Shown: positions 1 through 20,467 of the stretch, in pieces
Layout of the letters: each line of letters starts with the position of its first letter
How positions within the stretch are numbered: the stretch's first letter is position 1
Assembly (NCBI GenBank): GCA_038886995.1
Contig: JAWALG010000008.1
Span: 1-36,536 of the forward strand
DNA from: Candidatus Iainarchaeum sp.
Lineage (GTDB): Archaea; Iainarchaeota; Iainarchaeia; Iainarchaeales; DTGL01
Reading direction: 5' to 3'
Length of the DNA stretch: 36,536 nt
Notes under the pieces: model-generated
Database searches by the model: none
What the model saw: the letters and a program-made list of their open reading frames with translations, nothing else
Told to the model about the DNA's origin: nothing
Translations under genes and position numbers: made by a program

Positions 1-1332
1 GAGCCAATTGCCTTAACATCAAGAGCGCAAAGGGAAAAAATACTTAAGAAGGCACATTACAACCTATTCAATGTTGCGTCTCAGCATATCTTCATAGACC
101 TACTCACAGATTCAGGCACTGGCGCAATGAGCCAAAACCAATGGGCTGGTATCATGTTAGGCGACGAAGCATACGCAAGCTGCAAGAGCTATTTCAGCTT
201 AAAGAAAGCAATCTCAAAGATTTTTGGCTTTAAGTATTTCCTGCCAACGCACCAAGGCAGGGCTGCTGAGAATGTTCTTTTTTCATCCATAATAAAGCCA
301 GGCATGATTGTGCCTAACAACATGCATTTTGACACAACCCGCGCTAATATAATTGCAAATGGTGGCATTCCATTGAATCTTCCCTGTAAAGAGGCATCCA
401 TGCCTTTTAAGGACTTGCCTTTCAAAGGCAACATGGATACAAAAGCGCTTAGAAAATTTTTGTCAGAAAACCAAGATAAGGTTCCGCTTGTCATGATTAC
501 TGTTACTAACAATTCAGGTGGCGGACAGCCGGTTTCAATGCAGAACATAAGGGAAACGTCAAAAATTGCACATGACTTTGGCAAGCCGTTTTTTATTGAT
601 GCATGCCGCTACGCAGAAAACTCATATTTCATAAAGGTCCGCGAAAAAGGTTACAAGCAAAGATCAACGCTAGAAATTGCGCGAGAAATGTTTTCCTATG
701 CTGATGGTTGCACTTTTAGCGCAAAGAAAGATGCAATTGTAAATATAGGCGGCTTTCTTGCAATGAACGACAAAAAGCTCTTTGAAAAGTGCACTGAGCG
801 CTTGATACTAATGGAGGGCTTCCCAACTTATGGTGGCCTAGCAGGCCGCGACCTTGAAGCAATGGCAATAGGCCTTTTCGAAGGCATTGATGAAGCTTAC
901 CTTGAGAGCAGGGTTGCTCAAACAAAGTTTCTTGCAAAAGGCCTTAAAGATGCAGGCATACCTGTTGTTTGGCCTCCTGGAGGCCATGCTGTTTATGTTG
1001 AAGCAAAGAGTTTTTTCCCACACATTCCGCAAGCGGAGTTTCCCGGGCATGCTCTCGCAGTAGAGCTTTACAGGGAAGCTGGCATAAGGTCATGCGAGAT
1101 AGGGAGCGTGATGTTTGCTGAAAAAGGCCCTGACGGGAAAATGAGGCACCCAAAACTAGAACTTACGCGCCTCGCAATACCAAGGAGGGTTTACACAAAC
1201 GCACATCTTTCCGTCGTTATTGACGCCCATATAAAGATTGCTGAAAGAAAGGAAAAAATCCGCGGCTATGAAATTATCAAGGGCACAGGGCCTCTTAAGC
1301 ACTTCAATGCCTGGTTCAGGCCTTTGAAGTAA
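1..1332 (+). CDS. tnaA: Tryptophanase (tryptophan indole-lyase, PLP-dependent), 5' end outside the window
   Basis: The frame is open from base 1 (EPIALTSRAQRE...IDLLTDSGTGAMS), so the ATG at 127 is internal. It has beta-eliminating lyase motifs HQGRAAE, SAKKD (PLP Lys), EGFPTYGGLAGRD and RLAIPRRVYT. HFDTT and C-terminal LKHF match tryptophanase rather than tyrosine phenol-lyase (YFTTT, LRFF). Confidence 0.92.
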   Translation, partial: EPIALTSRAQREKILKKAHYNLFNVASQHIFIDLLTDSGTGAMSQNQWAGIMLGDEAYASCKSYFSLKKAISKIFGFKYFLPTHQGRAAENVLFSSIIKPGMIVPNNMHFDTTRANIIANGGIPLNLPCKEASMPFKDLPFKGNMDTKALRKFLSENQDKVPLVMITVTNNSGGGQPVSMQNIRETSKIAHDFGKPFFIDACRYAENSYFIKVREKGYKQRSTLEIAREMFSYADGCTFSAKKDAIVNIGGFLAMNDKKLFEKCTERLILMEGFPTYGGLAGRDLEAMAIGLFEGIDEAYLESRVAQTKFLAKGLKDAGIPVVWPPGGHAVYVEAKSFFPHIPQAEFPGHALAVELYREAGIRSCEIGSVMFAEKGPDGKMRHPKLELTRLAIPRRVYTNAHLSVVIDAHIKIAERKEKIRGYEIIKGTGPLKHFNAWFRPLK

Positions 1333-14474: not shown

Positions 14475-15860
14475 TTATTTCTTATATAATTTGTTTATAA
14501 TATACTCTGCTACATGTTCTTTGTATCCCATTTCAAGCATAACTTTCCTAAGCTGCTCTGGTTGGTACTTTGCCTTAGTTGGCTCTAAAGCAGCTATTGC
14601 CCTTTCAATTGTCTTTAAGTCAGCTTCGCTTAATTCCTCCTTTTTAGTATCTGTTTCCTTTGCTTCTACTATTTCCATCTTTTTATCAGAAGTTACTTCA
14701 AACTTATCTTTACTTTCTGCAATTGTACTCTCTGGTTTGGGCTTTTCAGAGGCCGCCACATATGGCTTTGTCTCTACGAAAACATCGTTTTCTTTTGGCA
14801 GCGGCTTTGATGCTGGACTAGTAATTTCCCCACCAGCGAAAAACGTCTTTTTTGGCTTGGCGCTTTCTCTTTCCGTGCCAAGAGTTGATTTCCCCGGAAG
14901 CTCTTCTTTTTTTGCCCATGTTACGAGTTCTTTCTCACGCTTTACACTTAAACCTTCTTTTTCTGATTTTATTTTCATCCTTACAAATGCTGCAACTATT
15001 AAAATTCCGATAAGCCCTATTATTATAGCAACTAGCCAAAACAAGTCGTTGGGCTTTATTGGCAACTCAGTGCCAAATAAGTTAACTGAGTTTTTATCAG
15101 TTTTTCCTTCAGTTGGTGTTGGTGATATTTTCTTTGCAGTTGCTGTTTGTGTTACTGCTGGTGCAGGGGTTGAAATCATGGGCCTAAAAGTAACATAAAT
15201 CTCAGAATCTCTTATCTTGTTCGCGTCTTTTATTACATAATAATTACCATCTTTTTCGTGGTATGTAGGTATCATCTGGATTAATTTGCCTTCAACCAGA
15301 AACTTCATCTTTTTTACTGCTTCTTTTGGCCTTGGAATTTTTACAATTATTATATTCTCCCTTTTTTCAATTTTAGCGAAATATTCTTTTTTGTTAATAG
15401 CGCTTAAACCTTTGTTTATAGTTTCAATGTCTTCAGGACTCCACTTTGCAAAGTAATTTACATCTGCCGTGTTACCATCAGGATTTGCCTTTAATTTGCA
15501 CTCAATTACCCTAATCATTACTTTGTAAGCTTCGCCAATATCTGTCAAAATTCTCTTATTGTTTTCGTCTGTCTCTGGCGCTTGAATGAGTCTTTCCATA
15601 GAATCTAGTAATTCTTGAATAGTTTTTCTTTGTTCTGAGGTACAATCTCTTTCCCAAGCGGAAATAACTTGTGCCTTATCCTCTAAAGATTCACTTATCA
15701 CAACGTTTTCTGTGCTTTTTGTAATGATTGTTCCATCTGCCTTTAATTCGTAAATCTTCTCGTAAGAAAACTGGGTTTTGAATGGCATATCAGCATTAGC
15801 AAAAACAGCAGATATTGAAATAAACAAAATTAGACAGATATTCTTAATTTTTATATCCAT
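14475..15860 (-). CDS. Single-pass membrane surface protein with a long charged cytoplasmic tail
   Basis: Signal peptide from ATG 15860 (MDIKIKNICLILFISISAVFA), Pro/Thr linker, TM helix, Lys/Glu-rich tail and a terminal helical module (LRKVMLEMGY). Confidence 0.8.
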   Translation of the reverse strand: MDIKIKNICLILFISISAVFANADMPFKTQFSYEKIYELKADGTIITKSTENVVISESLEDKAQVISAWERDCTSEQRKTIQELLDSMERLIQAPETDENNKRILTDIGEAYKVMIRVIECKLKANPDGNTADVNYFAKWSPEDIETINKGLSAINKKEYFAKIEKRENIIIVKIPRPKEAVKKMKFLVEGKLIQMIPTYHEKDGNYYVIKDANKIRDSEIYVTFRPMISTPAPAVTQTATAKKISPTPTEGKTDKNSVNLFGTELPIKPNDLFWLVAIIIGLIGILIVAAFVRMKIKSEKEGLSVKREKELVTWAKKEELPGKSTLGTERESAKPKKTFFAGGEITSPASKPLPKENDVFVETKPYVAASEKPKPESTIAESKDKFEVTSDKKMEIVEAKETDTKKEELSEADLKTIERAIAALEPTKAKYQPEQLRKVMLEMGYKEHVAEYIINKLYKK

Positions 15861-15953
15861 CACAAAACCTTTTTGCAAACTTTTTTCCATATGCAGGCAT
15901 TACCAAACTTCATATAAGATTACTTTTACATATTTAAAAAAGTATCTGTTTAG

Positions 15954-17336
15954 GTGAATCCTGCTTTCAGATCAATTTTTACTGATTGCTTTTCCGAAAA
16001 GACATATTTAAAAAAGATAAGGTTAAAAGTTAATACAAAGCCCTTCATATATTTTCGCAAAATATTAATAGTGATGCTACTTTCAGTATTTGCCGTATTG
16101 GCTTCTGCCCAGTTTCCACAGCCAACTTTTCCAACACCTAACTTTCCAGAGAGTGCTTTTCCAACACCAGACTTAAATCTGCCTGGCGGTGTGCCAGGGA
16201 TGCCAGGCACAATGCCAGGGTTGCCCGGGACACTGCCTGATCTAAACTTACCTGGGGGTATGCCAGGTTTCCCAGGTGGTGATTTCAACCTTCCCGGTGG
16301 TATGCCAGGTTTCCCAGGTGGTGATTTCAACCTTCCCGGTGGTATGCCAGGTTTCCCCGGAGGCAGCATGCCAGGTTTCCCAGGTGGTGATTTCAACCTT
16401 CCCGGTGGTATGCCAGGTTTCCCCGGAGGCAGCATGCCAGGTTTCCCAGGTGGTGATTTCAACCTTCCCGGTGGTATGCCAGGTTTCCCAGGTGGTGATT
16501 TCAATCTCCCAGGAAGTATGCCAGGGCTGCCAGGCGCCCCTGGAGGAGCTGGAGGAATTGCCTTACCAAATATGAAAATTGATTTTGCTTTGCAAAACTT
16601 ATTGTCTGAATATAAAGCTGGAAAATCTTTGGAAGTCGCTGCTCGGAACTTAGGTATAAAGGTAAGCAAGAATTCTGTTTTAGTTTCAGTAATGGCAGAC
16701 AGCAATTTTAATCCTCAAAGATGGGGAATGACTGACATTAATGAAGAAAAATCTGGGCAACTTTCTTTGTATACTGGTTATGTTGCAGTTGATAAAATAG
16801 AAAAAATGAGCGATGATAAAAGTGTGAATTACATAATGGCTGCAAGATTGCCAGGTGAGGTAATTCATGAGATAATATCAATTAAGTTGTCGCCAGATCT
16901 TCTTGCAATAGTAAACTGCATGAAGCATTTCAAGGAAAAATGTGATGTTGCGACCATTGCGAGTGAAAATTCCCTTGACTATAAAAATGGCTCTGTGCTG
17001 GTTTATATCACAACTAAAAATAATGCTAAGCCATGCGTTGAAACAAACATAGTTGAAGAAATTCCTGATAAGGTTGATCCAACCATAAAAACTTTCAAAG
17101 GTTATGTGCCAGTTGCAAAGCTTGAAGATTTATCAAATTGTGCTGATGTTGATTTTGTAAGCGGTGTGGTAGTAACCGGCATAAAGCTTGGCATATGTTG
17201 CATATTGCTTCTAATAATTGCAGCTTTATTTACAATTTACCTTATATTCTTTGTATACCTTAGAAAAAGGGAAAAGGAAAAGGTAGACAAATTGTGGAAT
17301 TTGCTGGCTCTGAAAAGACAGAAGGGGGAGCAATGA
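15954..17336 (+). CDS. Membrane-anchored surface protein: Gly/Pro-rich tandem repeat + two subtilase-propeptide-like domains
   Basis: Signal peptide ([18 protein letters not shown]), PGGMPGFP repeats, two similar alpha/beta domains and a C-terminal TM helix followed by RKREKEK. The start is uncertain (GTG 15954 or ATG 16074). Confidence 0.8.
16257..16525 (+). repeat. Coding tandem repeat: 42-nt unit ([14 protein letters not shown]) interleaved with 24-nt unit (GGSMPGFP)
   Basis: Five copies of GGDFNLPG and two of GGSMPGFP, nearly identical at nucleotide level (ggtggtgatttcaaccttcccggtggtatgccaggtttccc). Confidence 0.95.
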
Positions 17337-20300
17337 AAAAGGCATTTTTTATTGCATTGATTTTAATTGCTTTTGTTAGCTTTCCATACGCTCAAGCAGT
17401 GCCTGTAAGTGCTACTGACTGCAGAGGAAACTCTCTAACTTTAATGGATGGCAACTATGAGTTTCAGGGTGACATTACATGTGCTTACGTTTATATTTAT
17501 GCCAAAAAGCAGGATACTACTATTGATTGCCAGGGCGCCAAATTTGCAGCATACTATTTCTCTTACTACCCGGGTGATGGAAGCACCATTACCATAAGAA
17601 ACTGCAAATTCGAGCCTTATAGAAATTATTCGAGCTATAGCTACCATTATTTTTCAGAAACAAAGAGCGCTGGTTTTGAGTATATAAATAACACATTTGA
17701 GAATGTTTACTACCAGGTACAGCGCACTTATTCAAAGAAAGCCAAAATAGACATGAGCTTTACTGACAACAATATGCTCAATTCGGGATTTTACTTCGGT
17801 TTTTATGATTACGACTCAAAGCAGCTGGATCTCAACATAAACCTCACAAACAACAACCTAACAAACTCACTTTTTTATGTTTACTTCTGGGACTACTACA
17901 ACCAAAGCATATACCCCAATTTATATTTTGATATTCGCAATAACAATTTCAAGAATTCTTACCTAAGATTGTATTTTTACCACTACTACTTTAACCTTCA
18001 AAGTGACATTAATCGGCAAATTTCTATTGTTGACAACAACTTTGAACTTTCACAAGTATATCTGCAAAATTATTACTATAACTACAGTTCTCGTCTCCGA
18101 GACGTTAATCTTTATTTGGAAGTAAAAAGAAATCTTTTCAACAATACATCATTTTATCTTTATGACTATGGCTATAGGTATCCCAAATTTAAAAAGACTT
18201 TACCATCTAGAGATACACACATCGAGCTTACAGAAAATGATTTTAACTTAGCTCTCGTTTTTCTGTATTTGTACCCATATTATTGGTTTACCGACACTAA
18301 TATGGAGTTAATTTTTTCAAGAAATAAACTTCATGCTACAACCTTGAATATTCATGATTACAGATATGCACAAAATGGCAAAATAGAACTTTCCTACAAT
18401 GACATAAATAGATCACAGATAAGCTTCGGGTATTGGAACTACTGGTATTGGTACTACTGGAACTGGTGGTACTACCAATGGTATTATGCTTGGTATTACT
18501 GGTATTATTACGGCATAATAATTGACCCAAAGATTAGTGAAATTAATGTTCTTGGCAACAAAATTGAAAAGAGCAAGCTTGACTTTTTGGGATACTGGCC
18601 TTCAGCATACTCAAGCTTGACCATAAGCGATAACATTTTCAGTGGCTTCTACTGCCCACCTAATCTAAAAGAAAGTGAGTGTAGTACCTACTACAAAAAC
18701 ATGAGCAGTATTTACTGGGTTGGGCTTAATCAGCTTAGTTTGCCGACCAAGAACAATACTCTTATTTCCAACAATGAGTTTTATGGAGATAATAATTATA
18801 TTGGTTCTGCAATAACCCACTTGTCAGATCCTTATAACAGACCATACTACGGCGGTCCTTACGACTACTGGTGGATGTGCTATTACTGGGGCTACTGTGG
18901 ATGGTACTATTATTACTACTATTATTACTACTACAATTACTATTACTATTGGTATTATTGGTACTACTGGTATTATTACTACTATTACTACTGGTACTAT
19001 TATGCTTACTATTACCCATACAGCTATTGGTATTACTACTATTATTACTATGCTTATTGGTATTACTACTACTATTATTATTATTGGTACTACTATTACT
19101 ACTGGTACTACTACGGCTACTACTACAGATGGTACTACTGGTACTACTACAGGTACTACTACTATTACTACTGGTACTACTACAGATACTACTACAGATA
19201 TTATCCTTTCTTTGACATCTGGGAAAAAGGCGTTTTCGAGCTCTCAAACAACACCTTTAGAGGTTTCCATAGTGGAATTGAGACATTATCTGCTGGAGAT
19301 GGGCAAACTGCAGTTATAAAGAACAACACTTTCGAAGACAACAAATACGGGATTAAATATATAAGCAGCAATGGCACGATGCTTGTTTACGCCAACATTT
19401 TTGCTGACAATGAGGTTGGGATAGGCGGTATAAGCGGCACAGCCGGCGCTACACCATATTTCCCATATGCGTATCCAGGAGACGGTCCGATATCTGTATA
19501 TGATAACCGCTTTGAAAATAACCGCAAGTGGGCTATAAAGTATGTTGGCGCTGATATATGGTACGCGCCATACTATAAGCCATCAGAGGATGGCATATAC
19601 AACTACGACCCAGCAAATAGGCGCTCTGGCCCTATGTTCACAAGGCAGGAAGTTGATGATTACCTTAAGGAATCAAAGACAATGCTTATCTGCATGGCTA
19701 ACAATGACTTCACTGCAATGCCAAACACTGGCAAAAATGCAACTGAAGGAGCAATAAGAAGAATTTCAGATGCAGCTAACTATAATGGCCAATGCCTTGG
19801 GTTCTGCAGCGGTGCTATAAACAGCGCACCTATTGCTGACTTTGAGGTAACTACAAGCAAAGGAGTTTCGGACTTGACAGTTAATTTCTATGATCGCTCT
19901 TACGATAAAGATGGCAATATTGTCTCATGGCAGTGGGATTTCGGTGACGGAACATACAGCACAGATAGAAATCCTTCACATACTTACACAAGCAATGGGC
20001 CCTTCACTGTAACCTTGACTGTTAAAGACGACGGCGGCGCCAAGAACAGCAAACAGAAGAAAATTACCCCTTATGACACCGCTTCAATAACTGACATATC
20101 AGTGGAAGATATTTCAGCAGGTGAAAGTGCGCAGATAAGCGTAACATGCACAAAAGACCTGGAAGGTGTGCTAAAGGTTTACTTTGATCCTCTCGGAGCA
20201 AATACTAAAATCTATGAGTCAACCTATAAATGCAACTCTGGCGCAGTATCAGTAGGCCCACTCACGGAGATAGGCGTATACCTTGTAAGGTATGACCTTA

Positions 20301-20467
20301 GTGTGCCTTCTAGCTCCTGCACAAAATGCAGCGCAGAGAAGGAGTTCATTGTAAAGAGAAGTGCAGTAACAACAGCACCAGAAGAGCCAGTTGTTGCAGT
20401 TGTTGCCTTAATCCTTGTATTTTCAGTTTTGTATGTGGGCAGAAAAATTAAGGGAAATAAGTACTAA
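17333..20467 (+). CDS. Large secreted Tyr/Trp-rich surface protein: right-handed beta-helix (NosD/CASH-like) repeats, poly-Tyr tracts, PKD domain, C-terminal PE-TM anchor
   Basis: ATG 17333 overlaps the upstream stop (ATGA) after GGGGGAG. Signal peptide [22 protein letters not shown]; repeated I.NN.F.N rungs; PKD motif SWQWDFGDGTYSTDRNPSHTY...VTLTVKD (~19826-20070); C-terminus APEEPVVAVVALILVFSVLYVGRKIK. Confidence 0.9.
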   Translation: MKKAFFIALILIAFVSFPYAQAVPVSATDCRGNSLTLMDGNYEFQGDITCAYVYIYAKKQDTTIDCQGAKFAAYYFSYYPGDGSTITIRNCKFEPYRNYSSYSYHYFSETKSAGFEYINNTFENVYYQVQRTYSKKAKIDMSFTDNNMLNSGFYFGFYDYDSKQLDLNINLTNNNLTNSLFYVYFWDYYNQSIYPNLYFDIRNNNFKNSYLRLYFYHYYFNLQSDINRQISIVDNNFELSQVYLQNYYYNYSSRLRDVNLYLEVKRNLFNNTSFYLYDYGYRYPKFKKTLPSRDTHIELTENDFNLALVFLYLYPYYWFTDTNMELIFSRNKLHATTLNIHDYRYAQNGKIELSYNDINRSQISFGYWNYWYWYYWNWWYYQWYYAWYYWYYYGIIIDPKISEINVLGNKIEKSKLDFLGYWPSAYSSLTISDNIFSGFYCPPNLKESECSTYYKNMSSIYWVGLNQLSLPTKNNTLISNNEFYGDNNYIGSAITHLSDPYNRPYYGGPYDYWWMCYYWGYCGWYYYYYYYYYYNYYYYWYYWYYWYYYYYYYWYYYAYYYPYSYWYYYYYYYAYWYYYYYYYYWYYYYYWYYYGYYYRWYYWYYYRYYYYYYWYYYRYYYRYYPFFDIWEKGVFELSNNTFRGFHSGIETLSAGDGQTAVIKNNTFEDNKYGIKYISSNGTMLVYANIFADNEVGIGGISGTAGATPYFPYAYPGDGPISVYDNRFENNRKWAIKYVGADIWYAPYYKPSEDGIYNYDPANRRSGPMFTRQEVDDYLKESKTMLICMANNDFTAMPNTGKNATEGAIRRISDAANYNGQCLGFCSGAINSAPIADFEVTTSKGVSDLTVNFYDRSYDKDGNIVSWQWDFGDGTYSTDRNPSHTYTSNGPFTVTLTVKDDGGAKNSKQKKITPYDTASITDISVEDISAGESAQISVTCTKDLEGVLKVYFDPLGANTKIYESTYKCNSGAVSVGPLTEIGVYLVRYDLSVPSSSCTKCSAEKEFIVKRSAVTTAPEEPVVAVVALILVFSVLYVGRKIKGNKY
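18431..18511 (+). repeat. Short Tyr/Trp low-complexity coding tract
   Basis: 27 codons YWNYWYWYYWNWWYYQWYYAWYYWYYY (14 Tyr, 9 Trp). Confidence 0.95.
18902..19204 (+). repeat. Poly-tyrosine coding tract (TAC/TAT/TGG mosaic)
   Basis: 101 codons: 79 Tyr, 12 Trp and 10 other, with no stop codon. Confidence 0.97.

Follow-up and report, generated by a model that had tools for sequence, protein, structure and literature searches.

In the genome of Candidatus Iainarchaeum sp. (GenBank assembly GCA_038886995.1), a secreted, membrane-anchored surface protein carries a tract of 101 residues that consists almost wholly of tyrosine and tryptophan, and comparison of three species indicates that this tract is under strong purifying selection for its exact length and sequence. 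The tract (aa 537–637), characterized by composition, conservation and codon turnover, is encoded at positions 18902–19204 (+) of the stretch of DNA analysed here (the window), which is the whole of contig C8 (JAWALG010000008.1; 36,536 nucleotides) in an assembly of 866 kb, 38 contigs and 88.6 % completeness. The gene, of 1044 aa, lies at 17333–20467 (+), with an ATG at 17333 and the stop at 20465–20467; its frame opens at a GTG at 17294, from which residue numbers (aa) are counted. The genome holding the window is designated G000, and two other species of the genus G002 and G004.

The 303 nt of the tract are read as 101 codons in frame with the open reading frame (ORF) 17294–20467 (+) and encode 79 Tyr, 12 Trp, four Arg, two Ala and one each of Asn, Pro, Ser and Gly, so that about 90 % of the residues are aromatic. 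The Tyr codons, 50 TAC and 29 TAT, are interspersed, and TAA and TAG are absent. The four Arg (tract positions 76, 84, 95 and 99) are confined to the C-terminal third, and the motif MCYYWGYCG adjoins the tract immediately upstream. This recount agrees with an earlier reading of the window made from its letters (the original prediction), which had reported 79 Tyr and 12 Trp in 101 codons, an irregular mixture of TAC and TAT free of stops, Arg restricted to the last third and a pair of Cys before the tract. A second, shorter tract, GYWNYWYWYYWNWWYYQWYYAWYYWYYY (28 aa with 14 Tyr and 9 Trp; aa 379–406; 18428–18511 (+)), was absent from that reading; it follows strand 3 of a beta-helix rung, and 26 of its 28 columns are invariant in the three species. 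Genome-wide, Tyr and Trp account for 3.5 and 0.8 % of codons, respectively (666 long ORFs), and of the 1574 open frames in the genome (866 kb) that reach 100 aa, that of the tract is the sole one with a 20-residue window of more than 10 Tyr or Trp. A chance origin of the tract is excluded.

Orthologues were sought in the genomes of 40 relatives, and full-length ones were found in G004 (86 % identical) and G002 (76 %), in open frames of 1058 and 1056 aa. The frames with the tract in the three species span 1056–1067 aa and contain no stop in the matched part. In each of them the tract is exactly 101 residues long, without insertions or deletions, and its flanks are in frame on both sides. Its columns are invariant at 92 of 101 positions, and every pair of species is identical at 94 of 101 (93 %), compared with 87, 75 and 73 % for the rest of the mature protein. 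The aromatic lead-in with its Cys pair, SDPYNRPYYGGPYDYWWMCYYWGYCG (aa 511–536; 18824–18901 (+)), recognized from the sequence and the three-species alignment, is likewise invariant from PYYGG on, with two variable columns before that point.

While the protein sequence is held, the synonymous sites of the tract turn over. The codons of shared Tyr residues differ between TAC and TAT at 21/77, 30/76 and 31/76 positions in the three pairs (27–41 %), and among the 75 columns that are Tyr in all species, the codon differs in 39. The Nei–Gojobori ratio of nonsynonymous to synonymous substitution rates (dN/dS) is given for G000 and G004, synonymous sites having reached saturation in the remaining pairs; its value is 0.018 for the tract, compared with 0.14 for the N-terminal helix and 0.094 for the region C-terminal to the tract. 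A third-position transversion in a Tyr codon always produces a stop. By an estimate from transversions at fourfold-degenerate sites of the flanks (42/282, 90/231 and 88/228 in the three pairs), neutral evolution would have led to at least 12–31 stop-making hits in 79 codons, of which not one is observed. The original prediction had argued from the missing stops that selection acts on the protein and that the tract is not a neutral microsatellite; the length and sequence, fixed in three species while synonymous sites turn over, bear this out and make the argument much stronger. The homologues, moreover, retain the tract without stops or frameshifts, the loss of which had been named as a sign against it.

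The same comparison indicates that selection acts on Tyr and Trp specifically, beyond aromaticity alone. Phe, which is one base change away from Tyr and is common elsewhere in the protein, does not occur in the tract of any of the three species. Each tract contains 12 Trp, 11 of them at identical positions, and Gly72, Pro39, Ala35, Arg76, Arg84 and Arg95 of the tract are also fixed. Because Phe is excluded and both the number and the positions of Trp are kept, side-chain chemistry seems to matter. Codon choice points to translation of the tract: TAC accounts for 63, 78 and 58 % of its Tyr codons in the three species, compared with 51, 41 and 30 % for the gene outside the tract and 41 % over the whole genome (Fisher p = 1e-4), and the single tRNA-Tyr of the genome has the anticodon GUA, with which TAC pairs fully. 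Since synonymous sites are near saturation, this bias is more likely to be maintained than inherited. As to the tRNA genes themselves, ARAGORN predicts introns of 41 nt in tRNA-Tyr(GTA) and of 167 nt in tRNA-Trp(CCA); run without intron mode, it reports a tRNA-Tyr with anticodon ATA instead, at nearby coordinates.

The alternative that the tract is no protein feature at all, and represents an assembly artefact, a neutral (TAY)n microsatellite (TAY denoting TAC or TAT) in a decaying gene, or coding in another frame or strand, has a negligible probability. Among the matches listed, (TAY)10 runs from public contigs, prokaryotic as well as viral, are indeed mostly of that kind, and a mixed run in a further genome of the phylum, G136, belongs to an Asn/Ser-rich ORF on the minus strand. 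The present tract differs from these in several respects. The assemblies of three species agree on its length, as do two Logan contigs. One of these, from run X1 (92 % of words), comprises 1678 nt and is exactly collinear with window positions 17929–19606; the other, from run X2 of a different study, comprises 1304 nt, is about 93 % identical and is exactly collinear with 18654–19957. In this comparison the central 104–107 nt of the tract were masked as a repeat and were compared in length, not in letters. The runs containing the sequence are labelled as hot springs metagenome; the short pieces from a third run, X3, are unrelated GC-rich DNA. No RNA run is listed among those containing it, and the one RNA run compared showed no match to the gene, which speaks neither for nor against its expression. 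The original prediction had named raw reads that fail to support the tract as the sign of an artefact; these contigs, which are not raw reads, cross it collinearly in two runs.

A microsatellite origin is similarly at odds with the sequence. Tandem Repeats Finder detected units that match at only 62–77 %, TAC and TAT are mixed, their placement differs among the three species while the protein sequence is kept, and the length is constant. Of the other reading frames, the +2 frame (poly-Leu) is interrupted by stops in both other species, and the −2 frame (Ser/Asn) by stops in G004, which speaks against the coding of the tract in either of them. In the +1 and −0 frames a TAY codon can never yield a stop, which is the sole reason why these frames are open; the TAC/TAT swaps would represent Thr/Ile or Val/Ile replacements in them. 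Together with the flanks, which are in frame on both sides in three species, these sequence comparisons indicate that the tract is neither an assembly artefact nor a neutral microsatellite. A control for its invariant length is provided by the co-oriented gene directly upstream, which contains a tandem repeat, rich in Pro, Gly, Met and Phe, with a 66-nt unit present in 2.8 copies that are 100 % identical. In G004 its repeat region has half the length found in G000 (about 75 versus about 150 aa), and in G002 the assembly is broken at the repeat.

The tract appears to be restricted to these three species. In the 13 genomes of the family, only one further protein matches, an 899-aa protein of genome G010 (P0024), and it is free of the tract. 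A phmmer search against 1.84 billion protein representatives returned the same tract-less protein as its single match, and a word-indexed search gave 22 matches, all to the PKD domain only and covering 3–11 % of the query, with no tract-bearing relative among them. Among metagenome contigs, the protein query yielded 240 pattern stretches, none of which was confirmed, and a degenerate DNA motif yielded no match. An exact look-up of two sequences found neither in the protein collection, and all feature matches of the tract protein in the ESM Atlas scored below 0.9.

Runs of Tyr codons in general were surveyed more widely. Among 215 genomes of the phylum, mixed TAC/TAT runs of eight Tyr codons occur in four (G000, G002, G004 and G136), and pure (TAT)n in five others. 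The G136 run was considered as a second Tyr tract, in another family of organisms, and rejected: it is the end of a minus-strand, Asn/Ser-rich ORF of at least 507 aa (G136:C19:1-1525). This case illustrates that mixed TAY runs can encode Asn/Ser tracts on the opposite strand. Runs of ten Tyr codons were sought in genome contigs of 185,579 species and in viral contigs, and the following statements refer to samples of these scans, i.e. the matches listed. The genome contigs gave at least 153 runs, nearly all of them pure TAT or pure TAC in short frames, and the viral contigs at least 125, none in a Tyr frame longer than 91 aa. The only mixed-codon Tyr runs in long ORFs were clusters of 10–13 Tyr at the C-terminus of proteins resembling bacterial tyrosine kinases (BY-kinases), and nothing near 101 Tyr/Trp residues was present among the matches from either source. 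The BY-kinase clusters of the Wzc type resemble the tract in being genuine coding runs of mixed codons; they were the longest such runs among the matches listed, and they differ from the tract in being cytoplasmic autophosphorylation sites beside a kinase, whereas the tract is 101 residues long and extracellular, and Pfam detected no kinase or P-loop domain in its protein.

The BY-kinase-like ORFs found in this survey, of 533–544 aa, come from Cloacimonadota, Chloroflexota and a few other or unclassified metagenome-assembled genomes (L027, L031, L037, L039, L040, L060, L077 and L081), and for two of them (L060 and L039) the GNVR and P-loop domains were confirmed by Pfam. A metagenome-assembled genome labelled Metamycoplasmataceae (L022, L023, L030, L051, L056 and L074) contains, on several contigs, near-pure (TAC)n and (TAT)n arrays of up to 572 units; they occur together with other simple repeats and resemble satellite or foreign DNA more than genes.

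The tract is located in the ectodomain, between a signal peptide and a transmembrane (TM) anchor, and the original prediction of a secreted beta-helix/PKD surface protein of a DPANN-type archaeon is upheld by the signal peptide, the PKD domain, the anchor and the modelled rungs. For the enolase, the nearest named sequences belong to metagenome-assembled genomes of 'Candidatus Diapherotrites' (88 %) and 'Candidatus Iainarchaeum' (78 %). AlphaFold2 was applied to the full-length protein with four sequences (the three orthologues and one distant homologue) and to a 292-aa segment with three sequences. The full-length model contains regular three-strand rungs from about aa 49 to 751, with predicted local distance difference test (pLDDT) values of up to 96, followed by beta-sandwich domains and a terminal helix. 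Rungs were claimed on both sides of the tract in the earlier reading, and strands are modelled on both sides. The N-terminal part (17438–18823 (+)), identified with AlphaFold2 and VIA-align, is predicted to be a right-handed parallel beta-helix whose rungs follow a common pattern: a strand of 5–8 residues, the pair (D/N)N, a 3-residue strand (NFK, NFE) and a third strand of 8–10 residues. In most of the N-terminal rungs this third strand is rich in Tyr (GFYFGFYD, LFYVYFWDYY, YLRLYFYHYY, QVYLQNYYYN, SFYLYDYGYR, LVFLYLYP), and with both tracts removed the N-terminal helix still contains 13.7 % Tyr, compared with an ORF median of 3.2 % and a 99th percentile of 7.9 %. The rungs that follow the tract (aa 638–751; 19205–19546 (+)) are of the ordinary PbH1/NosD-like type, as indicated by PF13229, AlphaFold2 and matches to the G010 homologue; the NCBIfam model NosD_copper_fam matched the G010 homologue only, and weakly.

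Both tracts start after the third strand of a rung and stop at the first strand of the next (model residues 367–400 and 496–632). The simplest reading of the model would be a single uninterrupted helix in the ectodomain, from whose aromatic side two hypertrophied loops extend, and not two linked domains. Whether the tract loops out of the helix was a question raised by the original prediction; its placement after strand 3 reads as that of a loop, and the conformation of the tract itself is not predicted with confidence.

The modelled helix resembles a particular group of solved structures. VIA-align gives Z scores of 17–20 over 260–400 residues to many right-handed beta-helices, and all of these neighbours are polysaccharide lyases, epimerases, glycosidases or phage tailspikes. 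The best match is the Vibrio lyase RbmB (9ozl_D; Z 20.4, root-mean-square deviation 3.5, 284 residues aligned); others are the tailspike of cyanophage Pam1 (7eea_A; Z 19.1, 403 residues, model range 32..686, spanning the tract), AlgE4 and AlgE6 (17–18) and the P22 tailspike (17); the AlgG epimerase, PL6 alginate lyases and the tailspikes of HK620, Sf6 and CBA120 are further kin. Several single-chain beta-helices, 7eea_A and 4xlc (model range 30..662) among them, align to ranges that extend across the tract. As in the predicted fold of the tract protein, inter-rung loop insertions decorate one side of the helix in these polysaccharide-active proteins, and in lyases, epimerases and tailspikes such loops, together with aromatic residues, line the sugar groove. 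The tract protein differs from the solved beta-helices in sequence (5–18 % identity) and in being archaeal and membrane-anchored, with a PKD stalk, and we know of no beta-helix member with a Tyr/Trp loop of about 100 residues or with a Tyr-rich third strand throughout.

On these grounds it is put forward tentatively, as quite possible, that the tract serves as a Tyr/Trp contact pad for a glycan-rich partner surface. This reading is favoured because the tract lies in the head of the protein, on the aromatic side of a helix with polysaccharide-handling relatives, and employs Tyr and Trp, not Phe. As read from the sequence and the model, the protein is a modular surface protein, with an ectodomain in which a right-handed beta-helix head is carried on a PKD/immunoglobulin (Ig)-like stalk, anchored in the membrane. 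The Tyr-rich third strands of many rungs form an aromatic stripe in this model, and at two rungs this element is enlarged into Tyr/Trp loops of 28 and about 127 residues (the Cys-bracketed lead-in plus the 101). In these loops the phenol and indole side chains could be arranged as a pad, ordered or semi-ordered, which would touch a partner surface, most likely the glycans of a host or neighbour envelope, an S-layer glycan or a matrix, through many parallel sugar–aromatic stacking and hydrogen-bond contacts. As a variant, the pad might insert into a membrane interface. Contacts of this type are made by the Tyr/Trp platforms and inter-rung loops of carbohydrate-binding modules (CBMs), of polysaccharide lyases and of the tailspikes of phages, and both carbohydrate-binding sites and membrane interfaces prefer Tyr and Trp over Phe. 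The planar platforms of CBM1/2/3-type modules consist of three to five aromatics, Tyr or Trp and not Phe, that stack on sugars; the exclusion of Phe is common to these platforms and the tract, which is far larger. The evidence for carbohydrate binding consists of the resemblance in beta-helix fold and the Tyr/Trp-not-Phe composition. An adhesive or contact role had been suggested in the original prediction, and it fits the anatomy of a loop on the aromatic side of a lyase- or tailspike-like helix; it is kept here as a conditional proposal.

Several observations weigh against the contact pad. The tract has pLDDT values of 20–25 in both AlphaFold2 models, so that the helices drawn there are meaningless; the first, 28-aa tract (about 31) and the lead-in are likewise modelled at low confidence. 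A Foldseek search of the PDB with the AlphaFold2 model returned nothing at E ≤ 0.001, and the Beta_helix family PF13229 reaches 25.6 bits, 0.3 bits short of its cut-off of 25.9, over aa 648–744 only. The continuity of the helix across the tract is read from the model and from alignment ranges that give only first and last residues, and we infer the pad, and its order, from conservation. A shared fold, moreover, does not prove a shared function. The tract gene occurs in three of the seven genomes of the genus and is thus not essential to the lineage. Lastly, the tract is the most conserved part of the protein, whereas the contact surfaces of adhesins often evolve fast.

The apparent dependence on hydroxyl groups could alternatively reflect oxidative cross-linking, in which Tyr would be converted to dityrosine or to 3,4-dihydroxyphenylalanine (DOPA)/quinone links that harden the envelope or glue the cell to a partner. 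Such chemistry is known from mussel foot proteins (DOPA) and from resilin, spore-coat and oocyst-wall proteins (dityrosine), which are extracellular, Tyr-rich and phenol-dependent. The tract is extracellular as well, and the retention of Tyr with exclusion of Phe in three tracts suggests that the hydroxyl matters. Proteins of the mussel and resilin type, however, contain about 10–30 % Tyr in variable, disordered repeats rich in Gly, Lys and Ser, and they need oxidizing enzymes; the tract is 78 % Tyr (90 % aromatic) and fixed in sequence, belongs to an anaerobe-like host and lacks the Lys- or Gly-rich context. A multicopper oxidase (PF07732) was not found in the 88.6 %-complete genome, the control search having matched 6 of 14 genomes. 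Tyrosinase (PF00264) was not found in the genome either, in a search that is uninformative, the control being silent, and peroxidases were not searched for. The genome encodes an [FeFe] hydrogenase and desulfoferrodoxin (superoxide reductase), a gene content that suggests an anaerobic organism with little oxidant at its disposal, and random cross-linking would call for neither a tract of exactly 101 residues nor the fixing of 11 Trp in place. Cross-linking is therefore considered unlikely, and the analogy to DOPA and dityrosine proteins drawn in the original prediction finds no support.

Packing of the aromatic residues against each other presents a further option. The non-Tyr residues of the tract often recur with a period of four (XYYY) at positions 31-35-39-43, 68-72-76-80-84 and 91-95-99, and the last two series in particular suggest regular packing. 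Together with the high content of beta-prone aromatics and the four Arg in the last third, this spacing is consistent with homotypic self-association, in which Tyr/Trp/Arg stacking (a beta-zipper or cation–pi stickers) would bring copies of the adhesin, or whole cells, together in clusters. A core formed by packing alone, or an amyloid core, tolerates Phe, which the tract lacks, and nothing else in the data points to oligomers; the probability of self-association is considered low.

The requirement for a hydroxyl on a surface protein would also suit a scaffold for Tyr O-glycosylation, i.e. a mucin-like stalk with glycans on Tyr hydroxyls, and such glycans would solve the solubility problem of poly-Tyr. 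Tyr-linked S-layer glycans occur in some thermophilic Firmicutes; to our knowledge, no archaeon is known to O-glycosylate Tyr. Mucin-like stretches are usually variable both in length and in sequence, which the tract is not, and the tract is modelled as a loop of the helix, the stalk being made up of the PKD and Ig-like domains. As no glycosyltransferase adjoins the gene either, this explanation appears rather improbable.

Tyr and Trp are also the two redox-active aromatics, and the tract uses only these, with fixed Trp spacing and without Phe. Chains of Tyr and Trp might accordingly serve as a path for electrons or radicals, on the cell surface or towards a partner cell, hopping of this sort having been mentioned in the original prediction; the organism makes hydrogen and probably depends on a partner. 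Neither the protein nor its neighbours, however, offer a site for a cofactor or metal, a haem motif or a redox partner, and the oxidation potentials of Tyr and Trp are very high for anaerobic physiology. We know of no precedent for a cofactor-free wire of this kind, and such a redox wire is very improbable. A broader and more speculative possibility, to which we give little credence, is that of a genetically encoded, position-specific polyphenol module, an aromatic-stacked architecture outside the known folds that would exploit phenol and indole chemistry and not stickiness alone. The module might take the form of a cofactor-free path for hole or electron hopping, or it might be a glue, covalent or redox-based and switchable, that joins a DPANN cell to its host; an ordered redox-active array of this sort would account for the missing Phe, the 12 conserved Trp and the period-four XYYY spacing.

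Proteins of the general class to which the tract protein belongs, archaeal surface proteins with beta-helix and PKD domains, are known; the fixed-length insertion of 101 residues, 90 % of them aromatic, is new and of unprecedented composition. A search of the open-access literature found no description of such a tract. Tyr is unmentioned among the longest homorepeat runs in the passages of PMC3965023 consulted, and those of bioRxiv 10.64898/2025.12.19.695406 mention only stalling on PolyW. The closest relative of the tract protein, P0024 of G010, from the same organism family, shares its architecture, with a signal peptide, beta-helix, PKD and Ig-like domains and a TM anchor. Identity between the two amounts to 32 % in the C-terminal module (213 aa, E 7e-29) and to 36 % in about 100 aa of the rungs; the G010 protein differs in having neither a Tyr/Trp tract nor Tyr-rich strands.

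Long aromatic homorepeats are treated as near-forbidden, being insoluble, costly and prone to stalling and aggregation. The tract represents one that is kept at fixed length by strong purifying selection, outside a cell that seems unable to make aromatics. Chorismate synthase, prephenate dehydrogenase and EPSP (5-enolpyruvylshikimate-3-phosphate) synthase were not found in the 88.6 %-complete genome, while each was matched in 14 of 14 control genomes; because these three enzymes of the aromatic pathway were not found, aromatic residues are probably imported, and the cost of the tract is high. For protein biophysics the tract offers a natural test case of what a sequence of about 90 % Tyr/Trp folds into, and for DPANN biology a concrete, lineage-specific candidate for a molecule that contacts a host or matrix. 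The two tracts should be cleanly deletable from the modular ectodomain, which makes the question directly testable.

The remaining parts of the protein are those expected of an anchored surface protein. A Sec-type signal peptide (aa 14–35; 17333–17398 (+)), read from the sequence, is kept in G002, and the copy of the protein in the ESM Atlas begins at residue 14 (M), i.e. at the ATG at 17333. In the G004 orthologue neither ATG nor GTG is present at the aligned start; the only common start there is a TTG 23 codons into the frame, which falls within the hydrophobic signal region (L002:1450-1520), and the start of this orthologue may be unusual or mis-assembled. The PKD domain (aa 843–921; 19820–20056 (+)) passes the Pfam cut-offs (PF18911, 76.9 bits with a cut-off of 27; PF00801, 56 bits with a cut-off of 23.5) and is followed by a C-terminal beta-sandwich (Ig-like) domain, seen as AlphaFold2 strands (aa 922–1020; 20057–20353 (+)). 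The chain ends, after ...APEEP, with the TM anchor PVVAVVALILVFSVLYVG (20387–20440 (+)), evident in the sequence and a helix in the model, and the basic tail RKIKGNKY. No NCBIfam model of an archaeosortase-type sorting signal matched at E ≤ 0.1, and short signals are easily missed by such searches. The protein contains 15 N-x-S/T sequons, and STT3/AglB is encoded in the genome.

The PKD/Ig-like/TM-anchor module also ends at least seven other ORFs of G000, on contigs C6, C30, C11, C23, C20, C7 and C14, with 26–32 % identity over most of its length and with different N-terminal parts. This recurrence points to a family of modular surface proteins within a genome that measures about 0.9 Mb, and because the module recurs with different N-terminal parts, the beta-helix looks like one exchangeable head in that family.

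At its 5′ side the tract gene overlaps the repeat-bearing gene (15954–17336 (+)): the start of the former and the stop of the latter share the sequence ATGA at 17333–17336. The product of the repeat-bearing gene is predicted to be secreted and TM-anchored and is without a match in Pfam or NCBIfam. Its Pro/Gly repeat might conceivably bind the tract, in the way that polyproline segments bind aromatic surfaces. The two genes co-occur in the same three of the seven genomes of the genus. A neighbouring gene for a deacetylase is 79–100 % identical among the three tract-bearing genomes; three more distant members of the genus (deacetylase 58–60 % identical) have other genes at the locus, and in the fourth the contig is too short. 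Beside the tract gene lies also a divergent ORF of 471 aa (14475–15890 (−)), which shows no family match and has a hydrophobic segment at its N-terminus, a TM helix in mid-protein and a long tail rich in Lys and Glu; it is the third unannotated membrane protein at this site. The histone-deacetylase-like neighbour is split into two overlapping frames in G003 (G003:C23:6096-6966), through either a frameshift or a sequencing error.

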